A DNA stretch of 64,000 bases, taken from an uncultured Gammaproteobacteria bacterium (GTDB lineage Bacteria; Patescibacteriota; Microgenomatia; Woykebacterales; RBG-16-39-9b). Below, one piece after another: positions 1,750 to 56,123 of the stretch. Under the pieces are notes generated by a model. It saw nothing but the letters and a program-made list of their open reading frames with translations. It had not been told where the DNA came from and made no database searches. Position 1 is the first letter of the stretch, and each line of letters begins with the position of its first letter. The stretch is from the NCBI GenBank assembly GCA_965231125.1, contig OZ246414.1, forward strand, positions 757,440 through 821,439, in the 5' to 3' direction. Both the position numbers and the translations under genes were made by a program.

Positions 1750-2475
1750 CTATTTAAATGGATTTGATGTACCAAGACGATTGTTTGCCGGCCTTGATAA
1801 GTACTTTATGTTGCTCATTATTGAGTTAACTAAATCTTTCTCTTGAAGGGTAAGTGATACAATTTCACCCGGAGTAACCGAAGCTGAAGACGCACCAAGA
1901 GGAACTTCTAAAGTTAGGTCGCCTTCCAGAGCGTTGTCGCCTTGAGTTATAGTAACATCCGTGACAGCCACTAGTCTATCCGCATTTTTGTAACTTGCGA
2001 TAAATTTGAGGATATTATCAAAATTACCAATTACTACAATTGATAACTTGTAAGATTTATTAGAAGTTTGATTTGGCACCTGGGTAGCAGGAGTTGCTTG
2101 AGTACTAGATGAAGGCACTCCGCTACTGGAAACATTAGTTTCTACATCCTTAACTTTAACACCAGCGGACTGGGCCAAAACCTCGTTTAGAGTTACTAAC
2201 TTTAAGGTATCCTGGGTACCTGGGATGTATTTATTTATAAACGACGAAACTTCTTGAATCTCAGATTTATCTAAACTTTTTGCTGCTGAAATCCCATCTT
2301 CCAACTGCTTTACATTTTGTTTAAGACCACTGTTCTCGGAACTCGTTTCAAAGTATGAAGTAAGTCTTGGGTAAATCAAAAAATAAATTATCGAGACGCT
2401 AAAAACAAGCGTCACCAAAATGCTAATTGCAATAAAAAATGAAGTCTTTTTAAAAATTTTCTTTAATTCTTTCAT
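1750..2475 (-). CDS. pilO: PilO-like type IV pilus assembly protein
   Basis: 241 aa with an N-terminal TM, then a coiled-coil/periplasmic domain. Overlaps the upstream PilN-like gene by 4 nt, indicating translational coupling. The position and architecture match PilO. Confidence 0.45.
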   Translation of the reverse strand: MKELKKIFKKTSFFIAISILVTLVFSVSIIYFLIYPRLTSYFETSSENSGLKQNVKQLEDGISAAKSLDKSEIQEVSSFINKYIPGTQDTLKLVTLNEVLAQSAGVKVKDVETNVSSSGVPSSSTQATPATQVPNQTSNKSYKLSIVVIGNFDNILKFIASYKNADRLVAVTDVTITQGDNALEGDLTLEVPLGASSASVTPGEIVSLTLQEKDLVNSIMSNIKYLSRPANNRLGTSNPFK

Positions 2476-3023
2476 TTCAGCTTAAAACTAAAAATAAAGT
2501 CGTACGAGGCTGCTCCCAACTTTGAAATACCTACAATCTTAGGGGAATCAAAATCTTGCTTATTTTCATTTAAGTAATTAAGCGACTGATAAACTATTGC
2601 TGGTCTTTGAGCCTCCCCCTCTAGTTGAACTGAACCATCACCCGTAACTGAAAGGGTCTTCACCCTTATTCCGACTGGCAATGAATCTTGAATTTTTTTA
2701 ACTCTAGCTTCTTGAGCTGGATGAGTGCTTAAAAAACTTTGGTAAAGGCTAATCTTTCCCTTTGCGGCTTTTAGAGTAGCGGCTGGGGTGGATACCTCTT
2801 GCCATTCTAAGTTATCGGCTGAAAGCTGATATTGGAGCTTTTTTTGTTGGGATTTTTCTTTATTGTCGACGAGGAATACACCTACATATGCCAAAACTTC
2901 ACCGGCCAGTATTGCTGCCAAAACAACTAGAACAGCTGATCGGATTTTTTTAGTTCGTAACTTCTGCTCCTCTTCGGGTATTAAGTTTATATCGGAAGAC
3001 TTGCCAAATAATCCAAACAGCAT
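2472..3023 (-). CDS. pilN: PilN-like type IV pilus assembly protein
   Basis: 183 aa. The N-terminal INLIPEEE matches the conserved INLLP PilM-binding motif of PilN, followed by a single TM and a periplasmic domain. Confidence 0.55.
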   Translation of the reverse strand: MLFGLFGKSSDINLIPEEEQKLRTKKIRSAVLVVLAAILAGEVLAYVGVFLVDNKEKSQQKKLQYQLSADNLEWQEVSTPAATLKAAKGKISLYQSFLSTHPAQEARVKKIQDSLPVGIRVKTLSVTGDGSVQLEGEAQRPAIVYQSLNYLNENKQDFDSPKIVGISKLGAASYDFIFSFKLK

Positions 3024-3032
3024 AGGCAGTTT

Positions 3033-3195
3033 TAATAAACTTCCGAGGGCTAAAACCCTCGGTATTGTTCTTTAAGTTTACACGAGCGCAGAAAACCCTT
3101 GAAAGTCTAACTTACATTTCCCCTCAGAAGTGTGTAATCACTCTTAGCATTCATCCCCACTTTAAGAAAGTGGATTTTCTGCTAGCGATTATAAC
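3033..3195. repeat. 163-bp intergenic repeat family B, copy 1 (exact duplicate of 55949-56111)
   Basis: The two copies are identical by eye over about 163 bp. It contains the hairpins ccgagggctaaaaccctcgg and cactttaagaaagtg. Its minus-strand end carries a perfect TATAAT (gttataatcgctagc). Confidence 0.85.
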
Positions 3196-6181: not shown

Positions 6182-7096
6182 CTACTGCACACTCATAGTT
6201 CCACCAAAACTTCCCACAGTGGCCGCGCCGGCAGCTGTATAGGAAACAATTCCCTTGCCATCAATCGAGATTTGGACGGCTTTAGTGTTTTTTTGTCTAT
6301 CTCGGTGCACACTAAGCAAAGTGTTAGTTGCGTCCAGCGAGTGGGTGTGAATCCGCGGTGTTTGGCTTGAGCCATTAACATCAATGCTACCGCTCCAATC
6401 AAACACAGTTTTGCCGGAGTTAAAATACGGTGCCATTGAAATATTTTGCGTCACATCTGGATTTGGCGGGTCGCTGAATACTAGGGTAAGTGTGGACGAA
6501 CTCTGGATACTCCAGCCAAGATTGAAATGTAAGTGGCGAGTGTCTGTTATCCTTGTACCGGCTGGTGCGGAAGAGCCCTGAAGAGAAGCTTCACCAAGAA
6601 AGTTTACAGTAATAGTTGCGATCTTCGCTGTATCTAATGTTGATCGAATAACAACATTTCCAGAATCGGCAGTTGTGCCCTTGACCCGATCGAAAACAAC
6701 GTCAGTGGCACCGCCGGCTAGATTTATTTGGTAAATCTCCACCCTAGATAAATTATATACCTTATTGCTCGAGTCGGCTGAGTTATAAGTCGTCCCTTTA
6801 AAGAAAACGTATTTGCTTGTCTCAAAGTGGACACCATAGCTCGTCTCATTTTCCGAGGCAAGCGTGCGGTTTTGAGCCAGTTGAAGTGTGCTTATTATTT
6901 GCTGGGCAGTGGAATCTACGTCAACTTGTTTGGAAAATATTCTGAAGCCAGCGAAGGCAATAGCCATTAGAATGGCCAAAATACCAGTGGCTACCAAAAG
7001 TTCAATTAAAGTGAAACCTTTTGCAAATTTTGTTTTGATGGTAGGCAGAGGCAGCATAAATCTTAATCTATACCTTAATCTTACACCTACTATCAA
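6182..7096 (-). CDS. type IV pilin-like protein (prepilin-type N-terminal domain); the true start is probably the internal Met near 7057
   Basis: ...MLPLPTIKTKFAKGFTLIELLVATGILAILMAIAF carries the prepilin motif GFTLIEL. The longest ORF adds 13 N-terminal residues that are probably not translated. Confidence 0.65.
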   Translation of the reverse strand: MIVGVRLRYRLRFMLPLPTIKTKFAKGFTLIELLVATGILAILMAIAFAGFRIFSKQVDVDSTAQQIISTLQLAQNRTLASENETSYGVHFETSKYVFFKGTTYNSADSSNKVYNLSRVEIYQINLAGGATDVVFDRVKGTTADSGNVVIRSTLDTAKIATITVNFLGEASLQGSSAPAGTRITDTRHLHFNLGWSIQSSSTLTLVFSDPPNPDVTQNISMAPYFNSGKTVFDWSGSIDVNGSSQTPRIHTHSLDATNTLLSVHRDRQKNTKAVQISIDGKGIVSYTAAGAATVGSFGGTMSVQ

Positions 7097-18060: not shown

Positions 18061-18135
18061 TTAGTCCACGAAGTGGTCGCAGCACGCGGAGTATTCGGCT
18101 TCGGCACAAGGTGCGGAAGGCGTAGAATACGAGCG
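18061..18135. repeat. 75-nt intergenic palindromic repeat family A, full copy
   Basis: ttagtccacgaagtggtcgcagcacgcggagtattcggcttcggcacaaggtgcggaaggcgtagaatacgagcg is near-identical to 36440-36514 (a few mismatches). It contains a GACCAC/GTGGTC hairpin and further imperfect stems. Confidence 0.8.
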
Positions 18136-18151
18136 TGCTATACTTGAATTA

Positions 18152-18517
18152 ATGACCGTCGAGGAAGCGTTTACCAAAAGACTTCACAACGTTCCGGTAA
18201 CTACTAGTGGCATAGTTATAAAAATTCTGGCTGATGACAACGGTGAAACCCCTCACCAACGGTTTATTATTGAGCTGCACCGCGGCCATACGCTGTTAGT
18301 CGCGCACAATCTTCTCCGGGCTTACCGGGTGCCCGTGAAACTCGGCGATAAAGTCGAAATTCACGGCACTTACGTTTGGAATAAATACGGTGGCATTGTT
18401 CACAACACCCATCATTACGGCGGCGAGTGCGTGGGCGGCACATGCGACCCTCACGAAGACGGCTACATAAATTTCTTTGGATTAAAAAAACCCAACGTAG
18501 AAAAAATTGCCTCTTAA
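18152..18517 (+). CDS. DUF3465-family protein
   Basis: 121 aa. HQRFIIEL, LLVAHN and GGIVHNTHHYGG match the conserved blocks of DUF3465. Confidence 0.55.
   Translation: MTVEEAFTKRLHNVPVTTSGIVIKILADDNGETPHQRFIIELHRGHTLLVAHNLLRAYRVPVKLGDKVEIHGTYVWNKYGGIVHNTHHYGGECVGGTCDPHEDGYINFFGLKKPNVEKIAS
18439..18489. repeat. 51-bp direct repeat, copy 1 (inside the 3' end of the DUF3465 CDS)
   Basis: cacatgcgaccctcacgaagacggctacataaatttctttggattaaaaaa recurs exactly at 20284-20334. Confidence 0.85.
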
Positions 18518-18652
18518 AAGTGAGAGCCCCGATTTTAGGTTAAACCGAGGGCTCGATCACTCTCTTTCTTGCTATAGTAGTTTGTTTTGAGTTCTCTTCC
18601 CTTCTGCCTGGTTAGAGAGACGGATCCAGTACTGGTGATTCTTGTTACATTT

Positions 18653-19216
18653 CTAGCAGCTCCAAACTCCCTCCCAGCTGCTGCCTCCCCCGTGACACTC
18701 ACATTTGCAGAGGGTGAGACGCTCGACCAAAGCCTTGCCTCGTGCCGTTGTTACCAGGTCGAAGAAGGGTCTGTCTATCCAGGACAGTACTATCAGCAAA
18801 CACTCTCGACAAGCGAGACTATCCTCCCAACCGAAACGACCACTTCTTCTGGCCTCGGTGTGACGGGCCTCTTTATGGAAGGATAAGACCCAGTCAAAGA
18901 TCGCTAGGTCGTATTCGCGCACCACTTCTCCGAAGCACTTCGGGCAAAAGCTGACCTCTTCTCCACTACTAAGTTCGACGGTCTCAATTTCACAGAGACC
19001 TGGATGGCTGGCTTTCTCCAGGACCCACTGATAATCATCAGGAAACTCCTCCTTACTGATAACCAGAAGGCAGGCGCTGCAGACGCGAACTTGATCGCCA
19101 AGAAAGAGACACTTCGTCGGGGCACCTCCAGAACAATCTTTGGCTATCTGTACGTTGCACCAGTCCCCACCTTTCGCAAGCTTAACTACTTCGTCCAAAG
19201 TATCTTCCTTCCTCAA
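18653..19216 (-). CDS. cysteine-rich hypothetical protein (multiple CxxC pairs), paralog 1
   Basis: 187 aa. DWC..IAK.C, GDQVRVCSACL, FCPKCFGE, ACRECLL and LVTTARGKALVE are shared with the adjacent paralog. Confidence 0.45.
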   Translation of the reverse strand: MRKEDTLDEVVKLAKGGDWCNVQIAKDCSGGAPTKCLFLGDQVRVCSACLLVISKEEFPDDYQWVLEKASHPGLCEIETVELSSGEEVSFCPKCFGEVVREYDLAIFDWVLSFHKEARHTEARRSGRFGWEDSLACRECLLIVLSWIDRPFFDLVTTARGKALVERLTLCKCECHGGGSSWEGVWSC

Positions 19217-19817
19217 AACTCTCTACCAACGCTTTACCGCGGACTGTTGTCACCAGACTGAAGAAAGTCGGATCTACTTTCCACAAAGCCAACAGTAGGC
19301 AGTCTCGGCAAGCCCGAAGAGACAGTTCTGTATCATCCAGACCACCCTTTGGCTCGGTGTGATGGTTCTCGTCGTGATACGACAAGACCCAATCAAGAGC
19401 GGCCGGATCTTGGCTTAGAAGTACCTTACGTAGGCACCCCGGACAGAAGGTTACTTCTTCGTTGCCAACGTCCGCTGTAACTCTCTTACAAGAGCCTTCA
19501 TGACTAGTTCCCTTTAAGGTCCATTCCTCATCATCGTTAAGATCTTGAAGACAAGGGTCGCAGATTCGCACTTGCCCGTCGAGAAGAATGCACGGTGCAG
19601 GTATACCAACCTTCCCAGGACAATACTTAGCTATTTTTAAGGTGCACCAATCTGAACCTCCTTCGAACTCAACCTTTTCTCCCATGGATCTCCTCCTAGG
19701 CCAATTTTGGCCAAAAAAATACCCCCAAGATGGGGGTCGCAGAACCGAGTATTCACCTGTTGCTGGTGGTCTCATTCTGAGTTTTAATTCTAACACAAGC
19801 AAAGGAGGCTTTGTCAA
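19182..19817 (-). CDS. cysteine-rich hypothetical protein, paralog 2 of 18653-19216
   Basis: 211 aa. DWC.LKIAKYC, DGQVRICDPCL, FCPGCLRKV, ACRDCLL and LVTTVRGKALVE align with paralog 1 along the whole length. Confidence 0.45.
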   Translation of the reverse strand: MTKPPLLVLELKLRMRPPATGEYSVLRPPSWGYFFGQNWPRRRSMGEKVEFEGGSDWCTLKIAKYCPGKVGIPAPCILLDGQVRICDPCLQDLNDDEEWTLKGTSHEGSCKRVTADVGNEEVTFCPGCLRKVLLSQDPAALDWVLSYHDENHHTEPKGGLDDTELSLRACRDCLLLALWKVDPTFFSLVTTVRGKALVESFEEGRYFGRSS

Positions 19818-19919
19818 GACAAACTTTGAAAAAGAAAGCCCCGAAACGAAAAGAGCTTGAGTAATAATTTATTTGAGTAATTTAACCTTGGGTACAGCGA
19901 TTAATTGCAATACCCAAGG

Positions 19920-20225
19920 TTACCTAGCCACTCCCTTTATCAGTAATAAAGGAAAGGCAACAGCTGCAAGAAAACACACTAGTGCGATTGAAACCTCGAT
20001 CACCCTATTTTCCCATTCATCAAAGTTTAGAATGTCTCTGGCGAGTCTTCCCCACCACCAGAAAAAGGCCCCTGTTAAACCAACCCAGAAAATTAAGAAA
20101 GCTAGCCCCAACGGCACTGGATAAACCACCAACAACCGAAGGAGCAACCCCGTAACCAGTATGACCAGGAGAAGACCAACCCCAGCTAGTAAGACCTTCA
20201 AAGGTCCCGTATTGAAGAAAATCAT
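19920..20225 (-). CDS. small membrane protein (hypothetical)
   Basis: 101 aa with three hydrophobic helices and W-rich loops. Confidence 0.3.
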   Translation of the reverse strand: MIFFNTGPLKVLLAGVGLLLVILVTGLLLRLLVVYPVPLGLAFLIFWVGLTGAFFWWWGRLARDILNFDEWENRVIEVSIALVCFLAAVAFPLLLIKGVAR

Positions 20226-20283
20226 CTCGCCTCCTTAAAACCGTTTCGCCTCTGACTAACTTCCAACTTACCGTTTATTTTAA

Positions 20284-20334
20284 CACATGCGACCCTCACG
20301 AAGACGGCTACATAAATTTCTTTGGATTAAAAAA
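20284..20334. repeat. 51-bp direct repeat, copy 2 (displaced original 3' end of DUF3465)
   Basis: Exact match to 18439-18489. In the DUF3465 frame it would read ...TCDPHEDGYINFFGLKKSTTA-stop. Confidence 0.85.
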
Positions 20335-20414
20335 GTCTACTACTGCCTGAAAACATTTAGAGCCCCGAGAAAAGGCGTTCCTCGAGGCTCTTTTACTAAC
20401 CTACTTTCACCTGG

Positions 20415-20657
20415 TCAAGGTATTAGCCAGACCAATATTGCTGGTATCACGACTAACAACCCGAGAGAGTAGATCAGAAACCCGGTGCCTTTCATGGCAT
20501 TACTAATCCCAACAGTCGGTACATACCCCGACGCAAGGAAGAATATTAGTCCAAGGACAACCACCGGGATCCCCACAGCAAGAGCTCCAACCACCTCTCT
20601 TCTATTCTTTCTTGCTAGCCTCATCGAGTTCGTCTCAAAGGCGATTTCTCGTGCCAT
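20415..20657 (-). CDS. small membrane protein (hypothetical)
   Basis: 80 aa with two TM helices. Confidence 0.3.
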   Translation of the reverse strand: MAREIAFETNSMRLARKNRREVVGALAVGIPVVVLGLIFFLASGYVPTVGISNAMKGTGFLIYSLGLLVVIPAILVWLIP

Positions 20658-20831
20658 TACACTCCTTCGGAAATTAATCTCTATCCTCTAAGCTGAGTTT
20701 AATCAATTTGGGCTTTGGTGTCAAATAAATTTCTTAGTTACCTTTTGCTGTTTTTAATTCTCCAACTGCTTGGTGAAGTAGTTGAACATCTATTTCGAAG
20801 AATGAAGCCTCGCAACAAAATGCTACGAGGC

Positions 20832-21131
20832 CTAAACGAAACGGTCCAGTGCAAGAAAAATTGTGGCGAAGACAAAAGACGCCACCAAGTACACCGTGAC
20901 TCGGGTATCTTTCTTTGTCTTCAAGATGTCGAGCAAGTAAGCACCAACTAGGAAACAAAGCAGCGCTATCCCCCAACTCGGTACTACGAGAACCCAGTAG
21001 GGAAATTTTAGTGTTTCTATCCTCCCGATTCCCCACAAAGCTACTTGTACACTGCCAAAGATCACGATCGCCCAGTGAACCACCCCCGGCCTGGATGGTT
21101 CAGATGAGGTGGGCGGTTTGGCTGCCGTCAT
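20832..21131 (-). CDS. small membrane protein (hypothetical)
   Basis: 99 aa with three TM helices. It ends 10 nt before the MBL hydrolase start. Confidence 0.35.
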   Translation of the reverse strand: MTAAKPPTSSEPSRPGVVHWAIVIFGSVQVALWGIGRIETLKFPYWVLVVPSWGIALLCFLVGAYLLDILKTKKDTRVTVYLVASFVFATIFLALDRFV

Positions 21132-21140
21132 TTCTCCCTC

Positions 21141-21818
21141 CTAACCATTTTCTTGATCCTCGATCCAGCTTCTAACCGAGTAGTTATTGAAACGCTCGTA
21201 ACGAATCGTGGTTGCCTTTTGGTGACCGGGTTGGACGATCGTTTCGTCAGGCAGTTGAAAGAGCTTTTCGGCGATGCTGCGCATCTCTGTGTCGAAATCG
21301 CCAGGCCTAGTAATTCCGACTGCTCCAGCAAAAAGCGTATCTCCGCTGAAGAGCACATTTACATCTGGGCAGAATAGGCAGATGCTGCCGGGCGTGTGCC
21401 CTGGAGTCTCCAACACCAGCAACTGCAGACCTTCAACTTCAATTAGGTCTCCCTCTTGAGGGTGAAAATCCGGCTGGCGAATCGGTTGTGTCTTGCCGAC
21501 TGCACTTGGCGACCTGTTATGAGCCTTAGTGAGAAGCGGTAGATCAGCCCGATGCAGAAGGAATGGTGCCGCGGTCTTTTCCACTATTTCATTGACACCA
21601 ATCACGTGGTCGAAATGACCATGTGTTGACACAATCCTTTTGATAACCACACCGAGATCTGCTGCTAAACTTAGTATTTTATCAGCTTGTTCGGTCCGAA
21701 AATTAAAAGGATCGATACAGATTGCCTCGCGACTCGCCCGAGAACCAATTATGTAGCAGTTGGTCATGTAACCAACTACAACCTTACCGAAAGCAAGCTC
21801 GCTGACTTCTTCGGTCAT
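21141..21818 (-). CDS. MBL-fold metallo-hydrolase (glyoxalase II-like)
   Basis: 225 aa. HxHxDH motif STHGHFDHVIG. Also ETPGHTPGSICLF and a C-terminal QPGHQ. Confidence 0.8.
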   Translation of the reverse strand: MTEEVSELAFGKVVVGYMTNCYIIGSRASREAICIDPFNFRTEQADKILSLAADLGVVIKRIVSTHGHFDHVIGVNEIVEKTAAPFLLHRADLPLLTKAHNRSPSAVGKTQPIRQPDFHPQEGDLIEVEGLQLLVLETPGHTPGSICLFCPDVNVLFSGDTLFAGAVGITRPGDFDTEMRSIAEKLFQLPDETIVQPGHQKATTIRYERFNNYSVRSWIEDQENG

Positions 21819-22003
21819 TTCTTATCTCCTTTCTCTTCCACCGGCTTGGGTTCTCTTTCAGTCTGCCGACGCGTCATGTATATGAAGTCGATCTTCGTGA
21901 AGCTCTTACACTTCGAGCAGATCACGGGATGCCCATCGCAACTACCCGTCTCGTGACAGCTGCATGTGCACATCTCTTTCCTTTTTGGCACAACCTCCTC
22001 CAT
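21815..22003 (-). CDS. small Cys-rich protein (putative metal-binding)
   Basis: 62 aa, ...CTCSCHETGSCDGHPVICSKCKSF. Overlaps the MBL hydrolase start by 4 nt. Confidence 0.3.
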   Translation of the reverse strand: MEEVVPKRKEMCTCSCHETGSCDGHPVICSKCKSFTKIDFIYMTRRQTEREPKPVEEKGDKK

Positions 22004-22028: not shown

Positions 22029-24005
22029 TCATGCCTTCAGTTCCTCAACTGCTTGGGAAAGTAGCTGGACGTAGAGCTCGAAACCAACCAGGGCGATGTT
22101 ACCGGACTGTTGTACTCCAAGCAAATTCCCCGCGCCGCGAATTTCCAGATCTTTCTTGGCGATTTTAAAACCAGCGCCAAGTTCCTTGGCCTGCGCCATT
22201 GTTACTAGGCGTTCCAGCGCATCACCGGCCGGCACGTAACCTTTGGGGTAAAAAAGGTAGGCATAAGCTTGCTGGCTACTTCGACCTACTCGACCGCGCA
22301 ATTGATACAGATCGGCCAAACCAAACTTTTGGGCGTTCTCGATGATTATTGTGTTGACATTGGGCATGTCCAAACCAGAACCAATAATAGTAGTGCAAAC
22401 TAAAACATCCGCCGCGCAACTATAAAACTCCTCCATCACCATCTCTAGATTTTGACTTTTTACTTTTACCTTTTGACTTATCTTATCCATCTGTCCGTGA
22501 GCAAAAACCACTTTCGCCTTGGGAATCAGTTGCTGAATTTCTAAAGCCTTCCCCGCAATCCCGGCAATATTGTTGTAAACATAATAGACTTGGCCTCCCC
22601 TACTTAATTCATTCTCGATCGCCTCTTTAATTTTTTCTGGCTGATACACCTCAACAAAAGTTTTTATTGGCAGCCGTCCTGCCGGAGCCGTATTTAAAGT
22701 TGAAACGTCGCGAATTTTTGTCAGGGCCATATGAAGAGTCCGAGGGATCGGAGTCGCACTCATGCTTAAAATGTCCACTTGTTCCCGCGCTTTTTTAAGT
22801 TTTTCTTTGGCGGCTACTCCAAAACGGTGTTCCTCATCAATTATTAAAAGCCCCAGGTTTTTGAATTCGACATCGCTACTTAGTAGACGGTGAGTTCCGA
22901 CAACAATATCCGCCTTCCCCATCTTCAAATTTTTCAAAGTCTTATTTTGTTCTTCTTCATCTTTAAAGCGAGAAAGCATTTCCACTTCAACGGGAAATGC
23001 GGCTAGACGATTTTTAAAAATATGGTAGTGTTGCTCCGCTAAGATAGTTGTGGGCACAAGAACGGCTACTTGCTTACTTTCTTGAACCACTTTAAAAGCG
23101 GCTCGCACGGCAATTTCGGTTTTACCAAAACCGACGTCCCCAACCAGCAATCTATCCATCGGTTTATCAGACTCCAGGTCCTTCTTAATTTCGCCAGTCG
23201 CTCTTATCTGATCTCTCGTCTCATCAAACTCAAAACTTTCTTCAAGCTCTCTTTGCCAAGGAGTGTCCGGAGCGTGTTTTGGACGTTTCAAAGTTTCTCT
23301 TTTGGCGTAAAGAGCAAGGAGTTCCTTGGCAATGTCGACGATGGACTCTCTTACTTTTTGTTTAGTGCGTTCCCAAGCACCGGTGCCAAGATAGGAAAGG
23401 GGTGGCTTTCTGCCCGGCGTGCCGATGTATTTGGTAACCCGCTCGATTTGATCTATTGGAACATAAAGCCGGTCACCTTTTGCGTATTCCAAAATTAAAT
23501 AAGTTTTACCGGCATTTTTTTCTATCTCGCGGTACTCGACATTAATAAACTTGCCGATACCGTGATCGATATGGACAACGAAGTCCCCTTTTTCTATTTC
23601 CGAAAGGAAAAGCCTCTGTGTCTCTCCGATTTGCTTTTTGACCCATTTCGGTGCAAAAGCCGGCGTGGATTTATAAGGGATAATAAACAAACTGTTCAAG
23701 CGTTTTATTTTTTCGCCGGTTAGAGAATTGAACAAGTATATTCCTTCAATTTTATCGCCGATTAAATCGATTCTTGCGGGAACCTTGTAACGCTCCAGCC
23801 ACAGATCGACAAGCCCGCCACGGGTTGAAAATTGCCCTTGTTGGTAAGCGTTGCCAGTACCAACAGACTCATAACCAAATTCAACTAATTTTTCAGAAAG
23901 TTCGCGGGGCAAGATTTTTTGGCCTACGGAAATAGTGTATCCTCCCAAACTCGTTTTCGAGGGGTTTTGTGCGTCGGCTCTCTTGATTGTTTTTGAGCGA
24001 GCCAC
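22029..24005 (-). CDS. mfd: transcription-repair coupling factor, short form (CarD/TRCF domain + SF2 helicase)
   Basis: 658 aa. CarD-like RNAP-interacting block [15 protein letters not shown]...[19 protein letters not shown]. Helicase motif [17 protein letters not shown]. Motif [12 protein letters not shown]. Motif [11 protein letters not shown]. It lacks the long UvrB-like N-terminus of canonical Mfd. Confidence 0.75.
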
Positions 24006-26053: not shown

Positions 26054-26071
26054 ACTAAAAAGCTAAGTCTA

Positions 26072-26163
26072 TCCAATTTTTGAGGCTTCACTGGCACAAG
26101 CGCCGATGACTATACTTATAACTTGACTTAATTCGCGCGGATTTGAAGCCGAAAAAATTGTTG
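26072..26163. repeat. 92-bp intergenic repeat family C, copy 1 (exact duplicate of 31564-31655)
   Basis: tccaatttttgaggcttcactggcacaagcgccgatgactatacttataacttgacttaattcgcgcggatttgaagccgaaaaaattgttg is identical in both copies. Each sits between a minus-strand stop and the next minus-strand start. Confidence 0.85.
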
Positions 26164-28468: not shown

Positions 28469-28530
28469 TAGTCCAGTATACTGGTATATTGGACTCCTGT
28501 CAATTTAAATATTTTATAAATCAGTGCGCC

Positions 28531-31537: not shown

Positions 31538-31563
31538 TATTAAGTAAGAGCCTGTCCAATTTT

Positions 31564-31655
31564 TGAGGCTTCACTGGCACAAGCGCCGATGACTATACTT
31601 ATAACTTGACTTAATTCGCGCGGATTTGAAGCCGAAAAAATTGTTGGCAGGCGAC
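31564..31655. repeat. 92-bp intergenic repeat family C, copy 2
   Basis: Exact match to 26072-26163. Lies between the tsf stop and the frr start. Confidence 0.85.
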
Positions 31656-33452: not shown

Positions 33453-33640
33453 AGCAGCCCTCTCCTTTCTTGGTAACTGTTACCTCCCCACCTTAGGAAG
33501 GTAAGCTGGACCCGAAAACCCACCTTAGGTAATCAGGTGCAACTGTCTTCCTACGATGCGCGGATTATAGCGCTATAGGTTCAAAAAGTCAATCCTCCAC
33601 CCCAATAGTCCAATATACCAGTATATTGGACTTAATGAGG

Positions 33641-35326: not shown

Positions 35327-35866
35327 TTAAACCTGTTTCTCTTCCCCTTTCGTCGTCACTCGACCGCCTTGCCATTGGCCTCGATAAGCGGCGCCTTTGC
35401 CCGCAATTTCGTAGAAAATTATGTGGGCCACTCTGGCACCAAGTTCTACTTTAAAAGAGGAGCTTCCCATATTCTTCAGACCGAAAGTCAAAATTCCTTT
35501 ATATCCTGGAGCAACTTGCGTCGACAGTAACCAGACGCCACTACGCAACAGCGTAGAGCGCGGATACGGAATAGCGACTACATTTTCCGGCAAATTTATT
35601 TTCTCGACTGTCTGCATCAAGTAAAACTTTTCCGGTTTTATTGTGAACGTGGAGGAGGCTTCTGGATCATATTTGGCGACGGATTCGTGATCCACAGTAT
35701 TACGCTTTTCCAGACCGAGGAAAGTCTCACCCTTGATTTTGAAAAGTTCGCCCAGCCGAAAATCCAGCCCGGCTCCTTCTGGGTTTTCGAGATCCCGCTC
35801 ACCCAAACCCTCAACGAGTTTAACCTCTTTGATTAAATTTTTAATAGTTTCTTGGCTTAAAACCAT
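35327..35866 (-). CDS. dUTPase/dCTP-deaminase superfamily protein (dUTPase-like paralog 2)
   Basis: 179 aa. YPRSTLLRSGV (dUTPase motif 2-like), APGYKG (motif 3-like), RVAHIIF (motif 4-like), and a Gly-rich C-terminal tail. It lacks the Dcd catalytic Glu equivalent. Confidence 0.5.
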   Translation of the reverse strand: MVLSQETIKNLIKEVKLVEGLGERDLENPEGAGLDFRLGELFKIKGETFLGLEKRNTVDHESVAKYDPEASSTFTIKPEKFYLMQTVEKINLPENVVAIPYPRSTLLRSGVWLLSTQVAPGYKGILTFGLKNMGSSSFKVELGARVAHIIFYEIAGKGAAYRGQWQGGRVTTKGEEKQV

Positions 35867-36439: not shown

Positions 36440-36514
36440 TTAGACCACAAAGTGGTCGCAGCACGCGGAGTATTCGGCTTCGGCACGAAGTGCGGAAGGC
36501 ATAGAATACGAGCG
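36440..36514. repeat. 75-nt intergenic palindromic repeat family A, full copy
   Basis: Near-identical to 18061-18135. Lies between the dUTPase-like paralog start and the dcd stop. Confidence 0.8.
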
Positions 36515-36516
36515 GG

Positions 36517-37116
36517 CTATTTTACCTCCTTGAGTTTCTTCTGGGCTGAAAACTCTTCTCCCAACTTACTAGCGATTGGGGTCTTCTGACCAATGTACTT
36601 GGCCCCTTTTCTTTTTCGATAAGGATTTTCAACTGGGGAAGAAACTTGTTCGAAAGTGAAAGAACAGATTCTCATACCAGGATAAAGTGCCACCGGCATT
36701 ACGCCAATATTTCCCAGTTCCATCACTGGTCTCCCTTTCCACCCCGGGTCGAAACGGGCGGCAGTTGAATGAACTATAATTCCCAAACGACCCAGACTAC
36801 TGCGACCCTCGAGCCGTCCCAGCAAATCATCAGAAATCGAAAGATCCTCCACCGTTGTCGCCAAGCAAAACTCTCCCGGCCGCATAATAAAAGCTTCGTT
36901 TTTGCCAACAACTATTTCTTTCATGATCTCGCCGGCGGCAGACATATTCCTTGGATCTATATAAGGGTACTTAGAATGGTTAAAAATCTTAAAGGTGCTG
37001 CCTAAGTGAAAATCGATTGAACAACTACCGAGTTGTACAGAAAGGTTGGGCTGCGGAGTAATCTTAATTTTTCCTTCTTTAATTGACTTGCGTATGTCCG
37101 TATCAGAAAGAATCAT
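36517..37116 (-). CDS. dcd: dCTP deaminase
   Basis: 199 aa, colinear with E. coli Dcd. Shared blocks include IDFHLG, GRLEGRSSLGRLGIIVH, DPGWKGRPVMELGN (catalytic Glu present) and YPGMRICSFTFE. Confidence 0.8.
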   Translation of the reverse strand: MILSDTDIRKSIKEGKIKITPQPNLSVQLGSCSIDFHLGSTFKIFNHSKYPYIDPRNMSAAGEIMKEIVVGKNEAFIMRPGEFCLATTVEDLSISDDLLGRLEGRSSLGRLGIIVHSTAARFDPGWKGRPVMELGNIGVMPVALYPGMRICSFTFEQVSSPVENPYRKRKGAKYIGQKTPIASKLGEEFSAQKKLKEVK

Positions 37117-42584: not shown

Positions 42585-43670
42585 CTAGCGGTTCAGGGAA
42601 AAATTTCCGGCGCCTTGCGATTTTACTTTACCTTTTATCTCCATTAAAGAAATTAGGGAACCGATTTTTGCAGTGGGAAAGCCAGAGGCTCGAGCAATCT
42701 CGTCGATATGAACTACTCCACTTTCTAAAAGATCAATGATCTTTTGTTCCTCTTCGCTGTCCCCTTTTATTTCTTTTGATTCTGAATTCTTCATTCTCAT
42801 TTCTAAATTCAGCTCCTCAAGTATGTCATTAACGTTCGTAACAAGTTTTGCTCCTTGTTTTATTAAGGAAGACGGCCCGGCGGAAAACTTGGAATAAATT
42901 GGTCCGGGCACGGCAAAAACTTCCCGGCCTTGCTCTCCCGCAAGTCCAGCGGTGATTAAGGACCCAGAATCCTCCCCTGCCTCAGTCACGAGAACTCCGA
43001 GAGATAAACCGCTGATAATACGGTTGCGGGCGGGGAAATTCCCTGGTCGCGGATCCATACCAAGAGGAAACTCACTTATGACGGCGCCATAACCGCCTTC
43101 AATTTCTTTTGCCAAAGCCTCGTTTTCACGTGGATAAACCCGATCGACACCACCCCCAAGAACCGCAATGGTTTTGCCGCTGTTCCCAACTGCCACTCGG
43201 TGCGCGTGCGAATCCACCCCCAGCGCCAGCCCAGAAACTATGGTGAAACTCGCGGCGACTAAATCGCGAACCAAAACTTCAGTCACTTCCCGACCGTAAC
43301 CGGTCATCTTCCTCGTCCCCACAACACCAATAGTTTTACCCTCTTTTGGCAACTGCCCGCGGACGTACAAAACTGGTGGAGGATCCGCAATTTCTTTCAA
43401 AAGTTTTGGGTAAGTTTCATCTTCAATTGTTACCAAACTGATTTTTTTATCAATAATTTCTTCTAGATACTTTTCGGGATTAGTGTTCTTGCGGAAATTT
43501 AAAAAGGTTTCGGCGGTCTTGGGCCCGAGAATTTTTACAAGATTTCTTTCATTTTCTTCCCAAACGGCTCGGGCACTTTTGGCAAATTTCAAAAGAATTT
43601 TAAATTTCGCTGGCCCAATCCCAGGAGCAGCCGCCAAAGCAACGTAATATGGTAAATCTGTTTTTATCAT
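42585..43670 (-). CDS. dprA: DNA processing protein DprA (Smf)
   Basis: 361 aa. Rossmann-like core GVVGTRKMTGYGREVTE...IVSGLALGVDSHAHRVA. Its C-terminal wHTH resembles that of DprA. Confidence 0.85.
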   Translation of the reverse strand: MIKTDLPYYVALAAAPGIGPAKFKILLKFAKSARAVWEENERNLVKILGPKTAETFLNFRKNTNPEKYLEEIIDKKISLVTIEDETYPKLLKEIADPPPVLYVRGQLPKEGKTIGVVGTRKMTGYGREVTEVLVRDLVAASFTIVSGLALGVDSHAHRVAVGNSGKTIAVLGGGVDRVYPRENEALAKEIEGGYGAVISEFPLGMDPRPGNFPARNRIISGLSLGVLVTEAGEDSGSLITAGLAGEQGREVFAVPGPIYSKFSAGPSSLIKQGAKLVTNVNDILEELNLEMRMKNSESKEIKGDSEEEQKIIDLLESGVVHIDEIARASGFPTAKIGSLISLMEIKGKVKSQGAGNFSLNR

Positions 43671-44194: not shown

Positions 44195-45331
44195 CTACCT
44201 ATCCACCGCATCTGCACCAACATTGACAGTACCAGAGACGGTTTGTCCGGAGGTAGGGTTAGTTATGTTAACAGTTGGTGCAAGAGTATCACCAGCTGCT
44301 GGACAAGTAAATCCTGCCGCATTGAGGGCTCCACAGGCATCAAGCCTTCCCCAGCCATAAGTTGAATCCCAACCAGGTGTTCCTAGATCCACGGCACTGT
44401 TGTAGATTGCCTGGACAGCAGCAGCTGGTGAGACTCCTTTGGAAAGTAAGAGCCCCAGCACACCAGACACGAGGGAGGAAGCCGGATACGTACCTGAGAC
44501 ATAACCATAGCCTCCAAAGTTTGTCGCAGCCATAATGTTAACACCCGGCGCCGTCAGGTCAATCGCTGCGCCTCGGCCCGAGAACGAGAGAACGCTATCT
44601 GTCTGGTCGGTAGCACCGACAGCCACAACGTTGGCTAGACGGGCCGGATAGGCAACAGTGTAGTCAGCGTTGCCGGTTGGCGCCACAACAATTACGCCTT
44701 TGCTGACGGCGTAGCTGACCGCTGCCTCTAGTTCAGGCAAAGTCGTGTCATACCCCCGGGTAACGATAACATCGGCGCCATGGTCCGTCGCCCAAGTGAT
44801 GCCTTCGGCAAGGTCAGTTAGGGTACACGTATTGGTAGATTCGACACATACTGTTACCGGCATAATCTTGCAGTTCCAACAGACTCCGGCTATGCCGATG
44901 CTGTTATTAGTGGCGGCAGCAGCTACCCCCGCCACCGCGGTTCCTTGATTGTAGCCTGTGCCTCTGTCGTCGGTATCACCACCGCTGACGGTGTTGATTC
45001 CGGGTACCAGCTTCCCCGCTAGGTCCGGGTGTTCCTGATCGACCCCGGTGTTGAGGACGGCGATGACTACGTCGCTAGTACCCGTTGTGATGTCCCAGGC
45101 AGCTGGTGCCCGGATCTTGTCAAGAGCCCACTGGTACCCAGCTTGAAAGTAGGGGTCGTTCGGTGTGGTCGCGGCTCTAGAGGTTGGTTCTCGACTCTGT
45201 TGGACTAAAGTAACGGTGAAAGGGATAGATAAGAAAATGATTAGAGTACCAATAATACTCAAGAGATGTCTTTTGTCTTTTAGATTAATTTCTTCTTTTA
45301 GGTAACTCATCTGGGCAAGCACTCTCATCAA
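44195..45331 (-). CDS. subtilisin-like (S8) pseudo-protease, exported, with shared N-terminal anchor and truncated Ig-like C-terminal tail
   Basis: 378 aa with an S8 fold (VIAVLNTGVDQEHPDL...NQGTAVAGVAAAATNNSIGIAGV...SGTYPASSLVSGVLGLLLS). The catalytic Asp/His/Ser positions read N/A/Y. The N-terminus is identical to that of the gene at 52696-54177. It ends PTVNITNPTSGQTVSGTVNVGADAVDR. Confidence 0.75.
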   Translation of the reverse strand: MMRVLAQMSYLKEEINLKDKRHLLSIIGTLIIFLSIPFTVTLVQQSREPTSRAATTPNDPYFQAGYQWALDKIRAPAAWDITTGTSDVVIAVLNTGVDQEHPDLAGKLVPGINTVSGGDTDDRGTGYNQGTAVAGVAAAATNNSIGIAGVCWNCKIMPVTVCVESTNTCTLTDLAEGITWATDHGADVIVTRGYDTTLPELEAAVSYAVSKGVIVVAPTGNADYTVAYPARLANVVAVGATDQTDSVLSFSGRGAAIDLTAPGVNIMAATNFGGYGYVSGTYPASSLVSGVLGLLLSKGVSPAAAVQAIYNSAVDLGTPGWDSTYGWGRLDACGALNAAGFTCPAAGDTLAPTVNITNPTSGQTVSGTVNVGADAVDR

Positions 45332-45360
45332 GTAAATTATATACCTAGTTAATTATCCGT
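45126..45360. repeat. 235-bp exact duplication, copy 1 (3' tail of metzincin gene + 17-nt spacer + first ~68 codons of S8 gene)
   Basis: Identical by eye to 53972-54206. Confidence 0.85.
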
Positions 45361-47334
45361 CGCACTAACCCCCACGTTAACTGTCCCCGAAACGGTTTGG
45401 TTGTTGGTTGGATTAGTGATGTTAACTGTGGGAGGAACGGTATCTCCACCCGATGCGAGGACTCCATAGCTAATCGTTTTTGAGCTAAAACTATTTGAGT
45501 TGGAGCCGTTCGTCGCGGTCACAATTGCGTCGTAAATATTACCGACGATGGCGCTGGCCGGTGAAGTGAGCGCCAGGGTTGAAGTGCTGGTTGCTCCCGG
45601 AGCCAATGAAAGTAGTATATTGGGCGTGAAACTAGCCGTAAAACCGATTTGCAGCAGATAATATAACGAGAAGGTTGAAGAGCCGCACTCGGGGCTATCA
45701 TTATTAGTAACCGTCACGGAATAGTTTAAAGTTGATCCGGCTTCACCCCAGGCAATTGTCGGCGAGACTACCATTGTTGGAGGCACTCTAGAGCAACCGA
45801 CGACCGTGGGGATTTGGATATCAAGACTAACTTGGCTGGCGCTGATCGAGGCAATTTGGACTGTGATTCCTTTGTCGCTATCCTCAAAGACGCTGCCGAC
45901 TTTTAATTGCGCATCTGGAAATTTGGTCGATGGTGAGGCGTCAATTAACTGAGTGTCTCCGCCACTAGCAGATTTTGGAGCGTAGTGGATCAAAACGCCG
46001 GACAGCTCGGGTCGGTACTCAAAATAAAGCCAGTTAATGATGTTACCGCCAGCGGTTTTGTCGCGCGGAATCTTGATGATTTTTGGACCACTCGACCCGT
46101 AATAATCACTGAGCGTATAAGTACCGCTTGAGCCGACCTGAAGGCTATCACCAGAAACAAAAAAGAACATTTTTTCTTTGTGATAAGCATTGTGTTGGTT
46201 ATTGCTACCTCCCATAATTGAGTACCAATCACCATATTCATCTGAAGTACAGCCACTAGTTTTGATGCTGACCCCGCTGCAGTCATAGTAATTGGCGTGT
46301 AAAGCTCCAAAATTGTGCCCGAGTTCATGACCGACAATGTGTAAACTAAAGTTGGTCGCGCCATTTATCCAAGAAGTACCGCCGCCTTGAACACTACTAA
46401 GAGTCGCCAACCCACTAAAACCACAGTCGCTCATATAAGGAAAAACTACCATTAATTTTCGATAGGCAGCCAAGTTTTCACCCGCGGCGGTAGCCGCTTG
46501 AGTGGCTAGAGAGTAAATTTGCGAAGTATTACAGGTTGCAGGCAGGTTGACAGTGTAACCGGCTGCTTTGCCAGAAAAGCGCATCTTGCCGTAGGAGTTA
46601 TCTTGATAAAAAGTGCTGACCTGGGAAAAAACAACCGATTGAGCACTAGCTACGCTAACAGTATTATTTAAAACCATCACCAAAATTGTTTGATCCAGTA
46701 CCCCCAAGACTGCGCCTTTTACCTGATCCTCCCCAGAGACTTTTTCGACCGCAACCTCTTGACCAATTTTAATACCGGAAACTTTTACCTCTTCGTTGGC
46801 CAAACTAATGAGGGCATCAACATTCTCCTGAGATGGGTAAAGGTTGAATCCAGTTCCGTTAGATTTTAATTTGTAGTAAAATCCTCCCTTTTTTCTCTCA
46901 AAATCATCCCAGTGGGAAACTCCCAGGTTTCCCTCTAGAGTAACCTGCTCTTCGGTATTGACTTGAATTTCAGAGGGTAAAATCCCCTTGGCTTTCTGAT
47001 CAAAGGCAACTCTTACTGCCAGGTCAGGATCTTTTTTAATTAAAGTGGCCATCTTCTCTTTTCTTTGCTCGGAAAGATCAACCATCTTTGCTAGCACTTG
47101 AGGTTTCCGATTGCTAGAAGATTCTCGGTATTTTGAATTTTCTTGAACGAGCTGCCTCGTTAATTGTAAAAGCAGTTCCTTGTCCGAAAGTATCGCAGCT
47201 CTACCGCTGGGTTCTCTTGAGCTCAAGGTCAAGACGACGGTGATTGGTATCGAAAGAAAGATAAAGAAAGTGGCCGCAAGGACAAGCAGATGTTTTTTAT
47301 TTTTTAAATCAACCGGTTCTTTTAGATGATTCAT
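45349..47334 (-). CDS. exported metzincin-type zinc metalloprotease with beta-sandwich (CARDB-like) domain and truncated Ig-like C-terminal tail
   Basis: 661 aa. The HEXXHXXGXXH motif HIVGHELGHNFGALHAN is intact. The N-terminal anchor KKHLLVLAATFFIFLSIPITVVLTLSSREPSGRAA belongs to the shared family. It ends PTVNITNPTNNQTVSGTVNVGVSATDN. Confidence 0.65.
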   Translation of the reverse strand: MNHLKEPVDLKNKKHLLVLAATFFIFLSIPITVVLTLSSREPSGRAAILSDKELLLQLTRQLVQENSKYRESSSNRKPQVLAKMVDLSEQRKEKMATLIKKDPDLAVRVAFDQKAKGILPSEIQVNTEEQVTLEGNLGVSHWDDFERKKGGFYYKLKSNGTGFNLYPSQENVDALISLANEEVKVSGIKIGQEVAVEKVSGEDQVKGAVLGVLDQTILVMVLNNTVSVASAQSVVFSQVSTFYQDNSYGKMRFSGKAAGYTVNLPATCNTSQIYSLATQAATAAGENLAAYRKLMVVFPYMSDCGFSGLATLSSVQGGGTSWINGATNFSLHIVGHELGHNFGALHANYYDCSGVSIKTSGCTSDEYGDWYSIMGGSNNQHNAYHKEKMFFFVSGDSLQVGSSGTYTLSDYYGSSGPKIIKIPRDKTAGGNIINWLYFEYRPELSGVLIHYAPKSASGGDTQLIDASPSTKFPDAQLKVGSVFEDSDKGITVQIASISASQVSLDIQIPTVVGCSRVPPTMVVSPTIAWGEAGSTLNYSVTVTNNDSPECGSSTFSLYYLLQIGFTASFTPNILLSLAPGATSTSTLALTSPASAIVGNIYDAIVTATNGSNSNSFSSKTISYGVLASGGDTVPPTVNITNPTNNQTVSGTVNVGVSATDN

Positions 47335-47335
47335 A

Positions 47336-49816: not shown

Positions 49817-49869
49817 AGACAGTTGGGATAATTATCCCCTAACTAGCCCTGGATTGTCAAGCCACGGCC

Positions 49870-52251: not shown

Positions 52252-52262
52252 AAATTAATTTT

Positions 52263-52676
52263 TCATTTCACAACCACACTACCGTTAGTAGTTGGGTGGA
52301 GCTGATCGTGATACCCAAAAGTGCCACTCTTCTCAAACGTAAACGTGTAAATCTCGCCTTTTTTCAAAGGTTTTTTAGCATCAAATCCGGCAAGACCATT
52401 GTTGATCGGGTAAGGATTAGAGGCCGGCTGATGAGCCTTTGAGTCTTCATTAATCCAACCCACGGTTTCGCCCTTATTAATTAAAATTGTTTGGGGGTTG
52501 AAACCATTCTTGGTAATAGTTACGAAGGCGGTCGGTGCCGGCTTTTTGGGTAGTGCCGGGCCAAGCTTCAAATGACCTCTGGAAATTAATAGTGCAATAA
52601 TTAAAGCTAAACCGAGGATAATTACTACAACTAATTTTTGTTGTTTTTCCACTATTAAAATTATCTTATTTATCAT
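52263..52676 (-). CDS. small membrane-anchored cupredoxin-fold-like protein lacking Cys ligand
   Basis: 137 aa. N-terminal TM, then GETVGWINEDSKAHQP...YTFTFEKSGTFGYHDQLHP, reminiscent of the plastocyanin-like fold. No cysteine present. Confidence 0.35.
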   Translation of the reverse strand: MINKIILIVEKQQKLVVVIILGLALIIALLISRGHLKLGPALPKKPAPTAFVTITKNGFNPQTILINKGETVGWINEDSKAHQPASNPYPINNGLAGFDAKKPLKKGEIYTFTFEKSGTFGYHDQLHPTTNGSVVVK

Positions 52677-52695
52677 ATTAGGTTGTCAAGCTCAA

Positions 52696-54177: not shown

Positions 54178-54206
54178 GTAAATTATATACCTAGTTAATT
54201 ATCCGT
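53972..54206. repeat. 235-bp exact duplication, copy 2
   Basis: Identical to 45126-45360, including the promoter-proximal spacer and the 5' coding region. Confidence 0.85.
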
Positions 54207-54317
54207 TGCATTAACATTGACATTAACAGTTCCCGAGACGGTTTGTCCGGAGGTTGGATTGGTTATTTTGGCTGTCCAGTTGGTGAGAGCTGCGGAGTTA
54301 TTTTCTTCCATGGGCAT
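54195..54317 (-). pseudogene. orphan 40-codon remnant encoding only the shared Ig-like C-terminal tail
   Basis: Translates MPMEENNSAALTNWTAKITNPTSGQTVSGTVNVNVNATDN-stop. It sits 17 nt upstream of the S8 paralog start, the same spacing as metzincin to S8 copy 1. No upstream body remains; the guaA stop is 39 nt away. Confidence 0.45.
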
Positions 54318-54356
54318 TTAATTTAATTATGGCCAACCTGAAATCTGTTGTCAAAC

Positions 54357-55883: not shown

Positions 55884-55948
55884 TTGGAGAGATTATATTT
55901 AATATTTTGCAGCTTAGCAAGGAAACGTTTACTTAGTATTGAGGATCC

Positions 55949-56111
55949 TAATAAACTTCCGAGGGCTAAAACCCTCGGTATTGTTCTTTAAGTTTACACG
56001 AGCGCAGAAAACCCTTGAAAGTCTAACTTACATTTCCCCTCAGAAGTGTGTAATCACTCTTAGCATTCATCCCCACTTTAAGAAAGTGGATTTTCTGCTA
56101 GCGATTATAAC
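55949..56111. repeat. 163-bp intergenic repeat family B, copy 2
   Basis: Exact match to 3033-3195. Lies between the stop of the gene at 56124 and the guaA start. Confidence 0.85.
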
Positions 56112-56123
56112 CCCAATCAATTC

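Follow-up and report, generated by a model that had tools for sequence, protein, structure and literature searches.

A 51-bp direct repeat of a DUF3465 gene end in a Woykebacteria-like genome: a candidate scar of 3'-end displacement in a hypervariable islet

The DNA analyzed in this work is a stretch of 64,000 nucleotides of contig OZ246414.1, referred to here, at its full length, as the window. Judging by homologs, it belongs to the core genome of an uncultured, ultra-small bacterium of the candidate phyla radiation (CPR; Patescibacteria) related to Candidatus Woykebacteria, with a genome of 915 kb. The genes of the window include dnaX, Mfd, Pth, YbeY, thymidylate synthase, topoisomerase I, and MreB, and nearly all of them are located on the minus strand. 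We focus on the interval between a gene of the DUF3465 family and the gene of the transcription-repair coupling factor Mfd. In this interval, the 3' end of the DUF3465 gene occurs twice, as an exact 51-bp direct repeat, and the two copies enclose a block of three genes encoded on the opposite strand. The features of the locus are collected in Table 1.

The DUF3465 gene product is a clear member of the family PF11948 (E = 5e-23; 81.7 bits vs. a gathering cutoff of 25 bits), and 49 homologs were found, mostly CPR/Woykebacteria-like. Gammaproteobacterial members of PF11948 are 147-151 amino acids long and have a longer N-terminus, whereas the CPR version lacks that N-terminus and is characterized by a His/Cys-rich segment, HNTHH...C...C.PHEDG, together with a hypervariable tail, which in this family is the part beyond the G-x-K-K motif. 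The 51-bp patch includes residues that are invariant across the family, namely H101, D103, and G104. In the literature on DUF3465 and on Woykebacteria, nothing was found that bears on this locus.

The two copies of the 51-mer (CACATGCGACCCTCACGAAGACGGCTACATAAATTTCTTTGGATTAAAAAA) are located 1,845 bp apart, measured from copy to copy, and contain no mismatch, while no such match is expected by chance (100 shuffles). Besides this pair, no further repeat of this type occurs in the surrounding 4-kb region. The identity of the copies breaks sharply at 18489/18490, where the current tail of the DUF3465 gene begins. The gene is intact, with a substitute tail. After copy 2, the DUF3465 frame is kept as well: AAG TCT ACT ACT GCC TGA reads as ...GLKKSTTA-stop, with the stop at 20348-20350, in agreement with a tblastn match at 20285-20335. 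This second tail, STTA, is similar to the ...GVKKTATA end of a DUF3465 homolog (P0008). The flanks of the two copies behave asymmetrically. On the left, there is no similarity between them (the score is below the shuffle mean), while on the right, identity falls abruptly to about 60%, and yet the two sequences are still alike (p ~0.005, both against shuffles and against genomic 100-mers). This residual similarity corresponds to a short tail followed by a hairpin, an arrangement found after both copies; the two hairpins are homologous, with common arms (AGAGCCCCGA / CGAGG(G)CTC) and different loops. The core itself spans 17 wobble positions, all of which are identical between the copies; in relatives, the corresponding sequence is no more than 88-93% identical, in matches of 25-33 nt. 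Two diverged alleles would not be expected to agree so fully, and the 51/51 match implies that the copies have a common genome of origin, the result to be expected of a crossover within the patch.

The block between the repeats encodes two Cys-rich proteins, C1 and C2, and a small membrane protein, TM101. C1 and C2 are 46% identical (E = 4e-43), and C2 was also predicted by gene callers (as P0054). The closest relative of C1 is P0057, encoded in a related locus (L017; 47%), with which it has in common the C-terminal extension CKCECH..WEG.W.C, and the closest relative of C2 is P0056, encoded in another one (L022; 59%). Since each is closer to a counterpart in another genome than to its neighbor, C1 and C2 are old paralogs, not a recent tandem duplicate. 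In an alignment of 12 sequences of the family, C14, C22, C32, C42, C45, H62, C81, and C84 show no variation, C66 is nearly invariant, and a further AC-R-x-C pair is kept in the full-length members. The pattern of Cys and His residues suggests two or three zinc sites, and the family has the conserved paired Cys/His ligands that define zinc ribbons and treble clefs; C1 and C2 are probably zinc-binding. AlphaFold2 models of both proteins, from runs with 2-sequence and 12-sequence alignments, reached a mean predicted local distance difference test score (pLDDT) of 44-45, which is too unreliable for fold assignment. Neither protein has a signal peptide or a hydrophobic segment. TM101 has no homolog in the related loci. 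Searches of Pfam, PADLOC, PHROGs, and PDB sequences gave no match for C1, C2, and TM101, nor for three further small proteins of the interval (TM80, TM99, and s62).

The description given in the original prediction agrees with these results in most respects: it had reported the 51-bp repeat at the end of the DUF3465 coding sequence and 1.8 kb downstream, the continuation of the frame to ...GLKKSTTA, the two opposite-strand Cys-rich paralogs with common motifs (DWC..IAK.C, GDQVR.C..CL, FCP.C, and LVTT.RGKALVE), the small membrane protein, and the lack of an integrase. The geometry that it had proposed, in which DNA inserted at the DUF3465 3' end brings a substitute for that end, is likewise borne out by the unrelated left flanks, the 51/51 core, and the related right flanks. 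No tandem structure was found around the repeats, and a larger tandem duplication was thereby ruled out.

Table 1. Features of the DUF3465-Mfd interval, with related features of other loci
Feature	Position	Strand	Description
DUF3465 gene	18152..18517	+	121 aa; ends ...GLKKPNVEKIAS; only plus-strand gene in this part; convergent with islet genes
Repeat copy 1	18439..18489	+	Conserved patch, DUF3465 codons 96-113, (G)TCDPHEDGYINFFGLKK; attached to intact gene
Tail 1 (PNVEKIAS-stop)	18490..18517	+	Current DUF3465 end, as read from the sequence
Terminator-type hairpin 1 (GAGCCC...GGGCTC)	18522..18556		Between the stops of DUF3465 and C1
C1	18653..19198	-	Cys-rich, 14 Cys; 181 aa (internal TTG; 187 aa from TTG at 19216); C-terminal CKCECH extension
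C2	19182..19685	-	Cys-rich, 10 Cys; 167 aa; ATG preceded by AGGAGG ribosome-binding site
Palindrome (inverted repeat I1)	19883..19922		20+20 nt, 85% complementary, no spacer; at TM101 stop
TM101	19920..20225	-	Hydrophobic, 101 aa, ~3-helix membrane protein by open reading frame and sequence; first gene of the block
TM101 upstream region	20226..20283	-	Ends at the sharp left junction with copy 2; no similarity to DNA left of copy 1
Orphan DUF3465 3' fragment	20284..20350	+	Copy 2 (20284-20334) and tail 2 (S-T-T-A-stop)
Terminator-type hairpin 2	20359..20391		14 bp stem; after orphan fragment and after TM80 stop; terminator-like site
TM80	20415-20657	-	Islet, outside repeats
TM99	20832-21131	-	Islet, outside repeats
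Metallo-beta-lactamase-fold hydrolase (MBL)	21141-21818	-	Islet, outside repeats
s62	21815-22003	-	62 aa, Cys-rich, C1/C2 superfamily; next to Mfd, outside repeats
Mfd (transcription-repair coupling factor)	22029..24005	-	Conserved right border of islet; 57-74% aa identity across loci
Implied empty-site junction			...GAGTGCGTGGGCGG + core + GTCTACTACTGCCTGA
Implied circle junction			...CTTACCGTTTATTTTAA + core + ACCCAACGTAGAAAAA
Gly-Gly proteins of related loci	L019 6522-6833; L022 2266-2622, 2808-3137; L002 6835-7149(-); L026 1085-1438(-); L015 7843-8163(-)		Islet proteins of relatives

Several features of the block may be connected with its expression. Some 50 nt upstream of the start codon of TM101, a TGT-TAAAAT sequence (20285-20277, minus strand) spans the left border of copy 2; it might, as a speculation, be an extended -10 promoter for TM101-C2-C1. 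The palindrome at the TM101 stop is probably a terminator or an operator between TM101 and C2. An untranslated stretch of 234 nt separates these two genes (19686-19919, minus strand) and contains a terminator-like hairpin (19737-19721) followed by a T-run (ACCCCCATCTTGGGGGT ATTTTTTT), which lie some 20 nt upstream of the ribosome-binding site of C2 and have no Rfam match. Such an arrangement could represent an attenuator-type leader. Rfam gave no match, either for this region or for the window as a whole.

The related loci recovered share the order dnaX(-) / DUF3465(+) / gap / Mfd(-), and the gap was compared in the 15 of them that reach both DUF3465 and Mfd, out of 22 with Mfd. Its length ranges from 9-34 bp (L014, L010), or even overlapping genes (L024, L025), to 3.5 kb in the window, and its content is lineage-specific: L001 has an acetyltransferase and L004 a 288-aa protein, and other contents are membrane proteins and several orphan families that lack a Pfam match. 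The gap is a small hypervariable islet between two core genes. In the window, the islet continues beyond the repeats (20415..22003, minus strand) with TM80, TM99, MBL, and s62. Hairpins located after islet genes in L019 and L022 resemble hairpin 1 (87-95% identity in stretches of 22-46 nt), which is therefore part of the islet's own repertoire. A coupling of the tail type of DUF3465 to the cargo of the islet was considered and rejected, as the tail ...HKNPHIEYG is found beside differing neighbors in L004, L006, L007, L021, and L022.

The Cys-rich family is very small and, wherever the context could be read, confined to this place in related Woykebacteria-like CPR genomes. A word-index search with C1 returned only C1 itself, while tblastn on the related loci revealed clear C1 homologs directly downstream of DUF3465 in L002 and L007. 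The family has about 12-16 members in all; 12 were found in a profile search of 5.8 billion proteins and only 10, at E<=0.001, in an exhaustive HMMER search of 1.84 billion cluster representatives, and a metagenome scan with the family profile re-found only L002 and L020. All members with a readable context are located between Mfd and DUF3465 (in the window, L002, L007, L017, L018, L019/L020, L021, and L022, with a remnant in L023). In five of the six relatives in which the DUF3465 side is visible (L002, L007, L017, L021, and, as a remnant, L023), a Cys-rich gene directly adjoins the 3' end of DUF3465, just as C1 does in the window. The original prediction had recommended a search of phage and plasmid databases; no relative of the family was detected when viral contigs, phage genomes, and plasmids were scanned. 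The DUF3465-Mfd islet is the only known home of this orphan family. Its members are modular. The short ones consist of the N-terminal or the middle Cys module alone, and in four loci the N-terminal module is fused to a C-terminal CxCxCH...CxxC...YMTRRQ module (L007 8003-8341, L018 6640-7011, L019/P0061, and L022 1864-2247). The s62 protein is a stand-alone version of this C-terminal module (family profile E = 2e-4), 60-64% identical to the C-terminal part of the fused members of L007, L018, and L019. In L023, which has the second-closest DUF3465 (73% identical), an internally deleted family member of 81 aa (2239-2484, minus strand) lies beside DUF3465; its N-terminal ...GSDW is joined straight to VLVFH..., which suggests deletions between two DW motifs.

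A second strain carries the same arrangement. In a cluster look-up, a singly substituted variant of C1 led to the JGI contig L029 (32 kb, sample 3300010391). Over 20.5 kb, this contig and the window are 99.89% identical, and it has the same gene order, with both repeat copies intact. Of the 22 differences, 2 fall within the block (1,794 bp) and the other 20 within the flanks (about 18.7 kb), which corresponds to an equal density. Since the layout is the same, it was assembled twice independently and is older than the split of the two strains; the feature is real, and probably a recombination scar of moderate age. More distant relatives carry no such repeat: in the other loci, including six with the Cys-rich family, blastn-short and low-stringency tblastn detected no second copy or remnant of the DUF3465 3' end. 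A recombinase domain was found neither in the block, nor in 30 further open reading frames of the window, nor in the genes that occupy this interval in about 25 related loci.

The composition of the block does not mark it as foreign. The original prediction had pointed to a higher G+C content, and this holds against the window (0.478 vs. 0.449), but the value is only at the 82nd percentile of windows of the same size and is matched by the remainder of the DUF3465-Mfd interval beyond the repeats, which also has 0.478. The tetranucleotide distance of the block is at the 95th percentile, and only C1 (G+C 0.53) stands out. The suggestion that the block is a decayed mobile element was not upheld, given a Cys-rich family that is confined to the DUF3465-Mfd gap and free of repeats in relatives, no integrase, no phage or plasmid kin, a family member (s62) outside the block, and a composition that is not distinct.

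We give about an even chance to the proposal that the feature is the scar of a 3'-end displacement in a recombination hotspot, not a self-mobile element. According to this proposal, the ancestral resident locus would have been DUF3465(...KKSTTA)-terminator-TM80-TM99-MBL-s62-Mfd. DNA from the islet version of a related lineage would have entered the cell, with the DUF3465 3' end and the terminator of that lineage together with C1, C2, and TM101. As a Cys-rich gene usually abuts the DUF3465 3' end in relatives, the putative incoming DNA looks like a piece of a relative's locus. It would have recombined inside the conserved DUF3465 patch, either through one crossover of a circular intermediate of small size or through homologous recombination on one side and an illegitimate join on the other, with host recombination functions as the presumed enzymes. 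Such a crossover would leave recipient sequence on both sides, hence the 51 identical bases. The gene would have received a new tail, PNVEKIAS, and a new terminator, both of which probably arrived with the incoming module, while the old tail and terminator would have been moved 1,845 bp downstream as an orphan. Two competence-type functions are encoded in the window, DprA (42585-43670, minus strand) and a pilin-like protein that carries the N-terminal methylation motif of prepilins (6182-7096, minus strand), and their presence is consistent with DNA uptake. The two present repeats could also recombine with each other, which would delete or circularize the block, so that the structure as it stands could itself yield a circle.

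Several points weigh against the displacement proposal. A length of 51 bp is short for a RecA-dependent crossover, and sharp borders on a short exact repeat are also the classic mark of site-specific integration. From a single filled state, it cannot be proven which polarity the event had, and either block could be the incoming one. An empty site, i.e., a gene ending with ...KKSTTA without the block, was not found in a look-up of the DUF3465 protein cluster, and the only near-identical strain, L029, is also filled. No donor genome and no circular junction were found; a search with a wobble-degenerate pattern of the core gave no match in metagenome or viral contigs, although it missed the source contig itself as well. 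Furthermore, the rhs-type precedents consist of toxin tips and same-strand immunity genes, while here the tips have 4-8 residues and the cargo lies on the opposite strand.

In an alternative account, a site-specific recombinase encoded elsewhere would have integrated a circle of 1,845 bp by way of an attP identical to 51 bp of the DUF3465 3' end. The repeats would then be attL and attR of a decayed genomic island or cis-mobilizable element (CIME), and the gene would have obtained a substitute end. The exact repeats that restore the 3' end of the gene (51/51), the sharp borders, the truncated 3' end on the element side, and the frame left intact after the insertion all agree with this, and even the lack of an integrase in the block corresponds to the definition of CIMEs, in which att sites are retained while the integration and transfer genes are lost (ICEberg 2.0, PMC6323972). 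The relatives speak against it: neither an encoded or adjacent tyrosine or serine recombinase nor an integrative and conjugative (ICE) or mobilizable (IME) element at the same att site was detected in the block, the 30 other open reading frames, or the roughly 25 related intervals, six other loci carry the Cys-rich family without an att-like repeat or remnant, and the family is never seen away from this locus, nor on DNA of viruses or plasmids. With no foreign composition, no mobile-element cargo, and s62 outside the supposed element, we consider such an island unlikely. An event of reverse polarity appears somewhat less probable still. In that case, the resident would have been DUF3465(PNVEKIAS)-C1-C2-TM101...Mfd, and the incoming DNA would have brought the STTA fragment with its terminator, TM80, TM99, MBL, and s62, with homology in Mfd as its anchor and an illegitimate join upstream of TM101. 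A DUF3465 end followed by a full-length Cys-rich gene is indeed the commonest layout in relatives, Mfd is a long and well-conserved anchor, and homology-facilitated illegitimate recombination is documented in transformable bacteria, according to the works cited in PMC5361080. However, donor and recipient would have to agree at all 51 bases, including the 17 wobble positions, and then become unalignable at once, although relatives reach only 88-93%; a crossover inside the patch is the simpler account of the identity. In addition, the position of s62 beside Mfd matches that of P0061-type genes in L019, so that the right-hand block also looks native.

The similarity that remains between the right flanks, together with the several other exact or near-exact intergenic repeats of this genome, would fit a local duplication of the gene 3' end after which tail and terminator diverged while gene conversion held the 51-bp patch identical. 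We regard this as improbable, as the identity drops in one step from 100% to about 60% with no tandem structure around, a conversion tract of 51 bp with a non-homologous left border would be contrived, and the three genes between the copies would be left unexplained. It is hardly conceivable that the structure is a chimeric join of two strain variants at a common k-mer. The genome was assembled from a metagenome and the repeat is short and exact, which would favor such an artifact, but the independent contig L029 has the identical arrangement, with both junctions, despite its 22 differences over 20.5 kb, and at the left junction of copy 2, sequences meet that no simple graph of two variants would place side by side.

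Among known systems, the displacement of rhs C-termini resembles the proposed displacement at DUF3465 most closely. For rhs, homologous recombination with a small circular intermediate that carries a core fragment, a tip, and the intervening genes was proposed, and the attached and dissociated cores are identical (Jackson et al. 2009, PMC2935791). For effector-immunity arrays of type VI secretion systems (T6SS), one homologous and one illegitimate join were proposed (Kirchberger et al. 2017, PMC5361080). As in rhs displacement and the analogous orphan-tip arrays at contact-dependent inhibition (CDI), MafB, and T6SS loci, an intact gene is followed here by a fragment in the same orientation, with an identical core and a different tip; the intervening genes would have come with the new tip, no integrase would be involved, and the donors would belong to the same clade, as indicated by the Cys-rich genes that abut DUF3465 and by the kin of hairpin 1 in L019 and L022. 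Unlike in those systems, DUF3465 is a 121-aa non-toxin, the tips consist of 8 and 4 residues, the intervening genes are opposite-strand genes not related to immunity, no toxin or immunity domain was matched, a single displaced tip is present instead of an array, and the host is a CPR bacterium. CIMEs and decayed islands share with this locus a short segment between exact repeats of a gene 3' end, a reconstituted gene, and the lack of integration and transfer genes, but differ in that no integrase-bearing ICE or IME is found at the site in related loci, the cargo is endemic to the locus and repeat-free in relatives, and there is no compositional signal. Homology-facilitated illegitimate recombination (de Vries & Wackernagel 2002; Prudhomme et al. 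2002, as cited in PMC5361080) is comparable in its homologous anchor and its illegitimate join, by which foreign DNA is inserted beside a conserved gene. The DprA and pilin-like proteins encoded here are a further likeness, whereas its usual product is a deletion or a simple insertion, not a 51-bp duplication. To our knowledge, it was never demonstrated in CPR bacteria. Mechanisms of gene flow in CPR bacteria are poorly documented in general, and competence is thought to be relied on.

The feature is most likely best filed as a variant of gene-end displacement and not as a mobile element, real but fairly ordinary. If true, it would be a clean and recent case in which the end of an ordinary, non-toxin gene was displaced in a CPR bacterium. 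Direct repeats of a gene 3' end are insufficient for calling a mobile element, and it was the comparison with relatives that altered the reading here.

A second orphan family was observed in the islets of relatives, with no member in the window. Its proteins have 100-118 aa and no Pfam match, are encoded beside multi-Cys proteins, and all end with Gly-Gly (...FGLVGG, ...VAIVGG, ...IGLIGG, ...VCIAGG, ...VLLVGG), which recalls the C-termini of ubiquitin-like proteins, ThiS, and MoaD. It is a long shot that the DUF3465-Mfd gap is a dedicated cassette-exchange site of Woykebacteria-like CPR bacteria, in which the DUF3465 3' patch would anchor modules of 1-3 kb with orphan multi-zinc proteins, small membrane proteins, and, in relatives, Gly-Gly proteins of about 100 aa, perhaps representing an undescribed ubiquitin-like conjugation or defense system that diversifies by displacement, in the manner of polymorphic toxin loci.

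Other repeats occur in the window. An 81-nt element without an Rfam match lies directly upstream of the DUF3465 start (18061-18141) and contains a promoter-like TCGGCA-16-TAGAAT; it occurs again 18 kb away (36440-36520, 93% identity), and a 32-nt inverted copy is located at 1389-1420. The copy at 36440-36520 is placed between two dCTP-deaminase-like paralogs (35327-35866 and 36517-37116, both minus strand), which belong to a nucleotide-metabolism cluster with thymidylate synthase and thymidylate kinase. A stretch of 163 nt, also without an Rfam match, is 100% identical at 3033-3195 and 55949-56111, 53 kb apart, and each copy lies just upstream of a minus-strand gene, namely a 183-aa open reading frame and GMP synthase. 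An intergenic repeat of 98 nt (26066-26163 and 31549-31646; 98% identical) has one copy upstream of the gene of the ribosome recycling factor, and a pair of near-palindromic 26-nt sites was found at 28470-28495 and 33607-33632. Finally, a run of large paralogous genes on the minus strand (44195-58193), two of them with subtilase (S8) domains, has common 3'-end repeats of 98-300 nt (D1, D2, D4, D5; <=90% identity).

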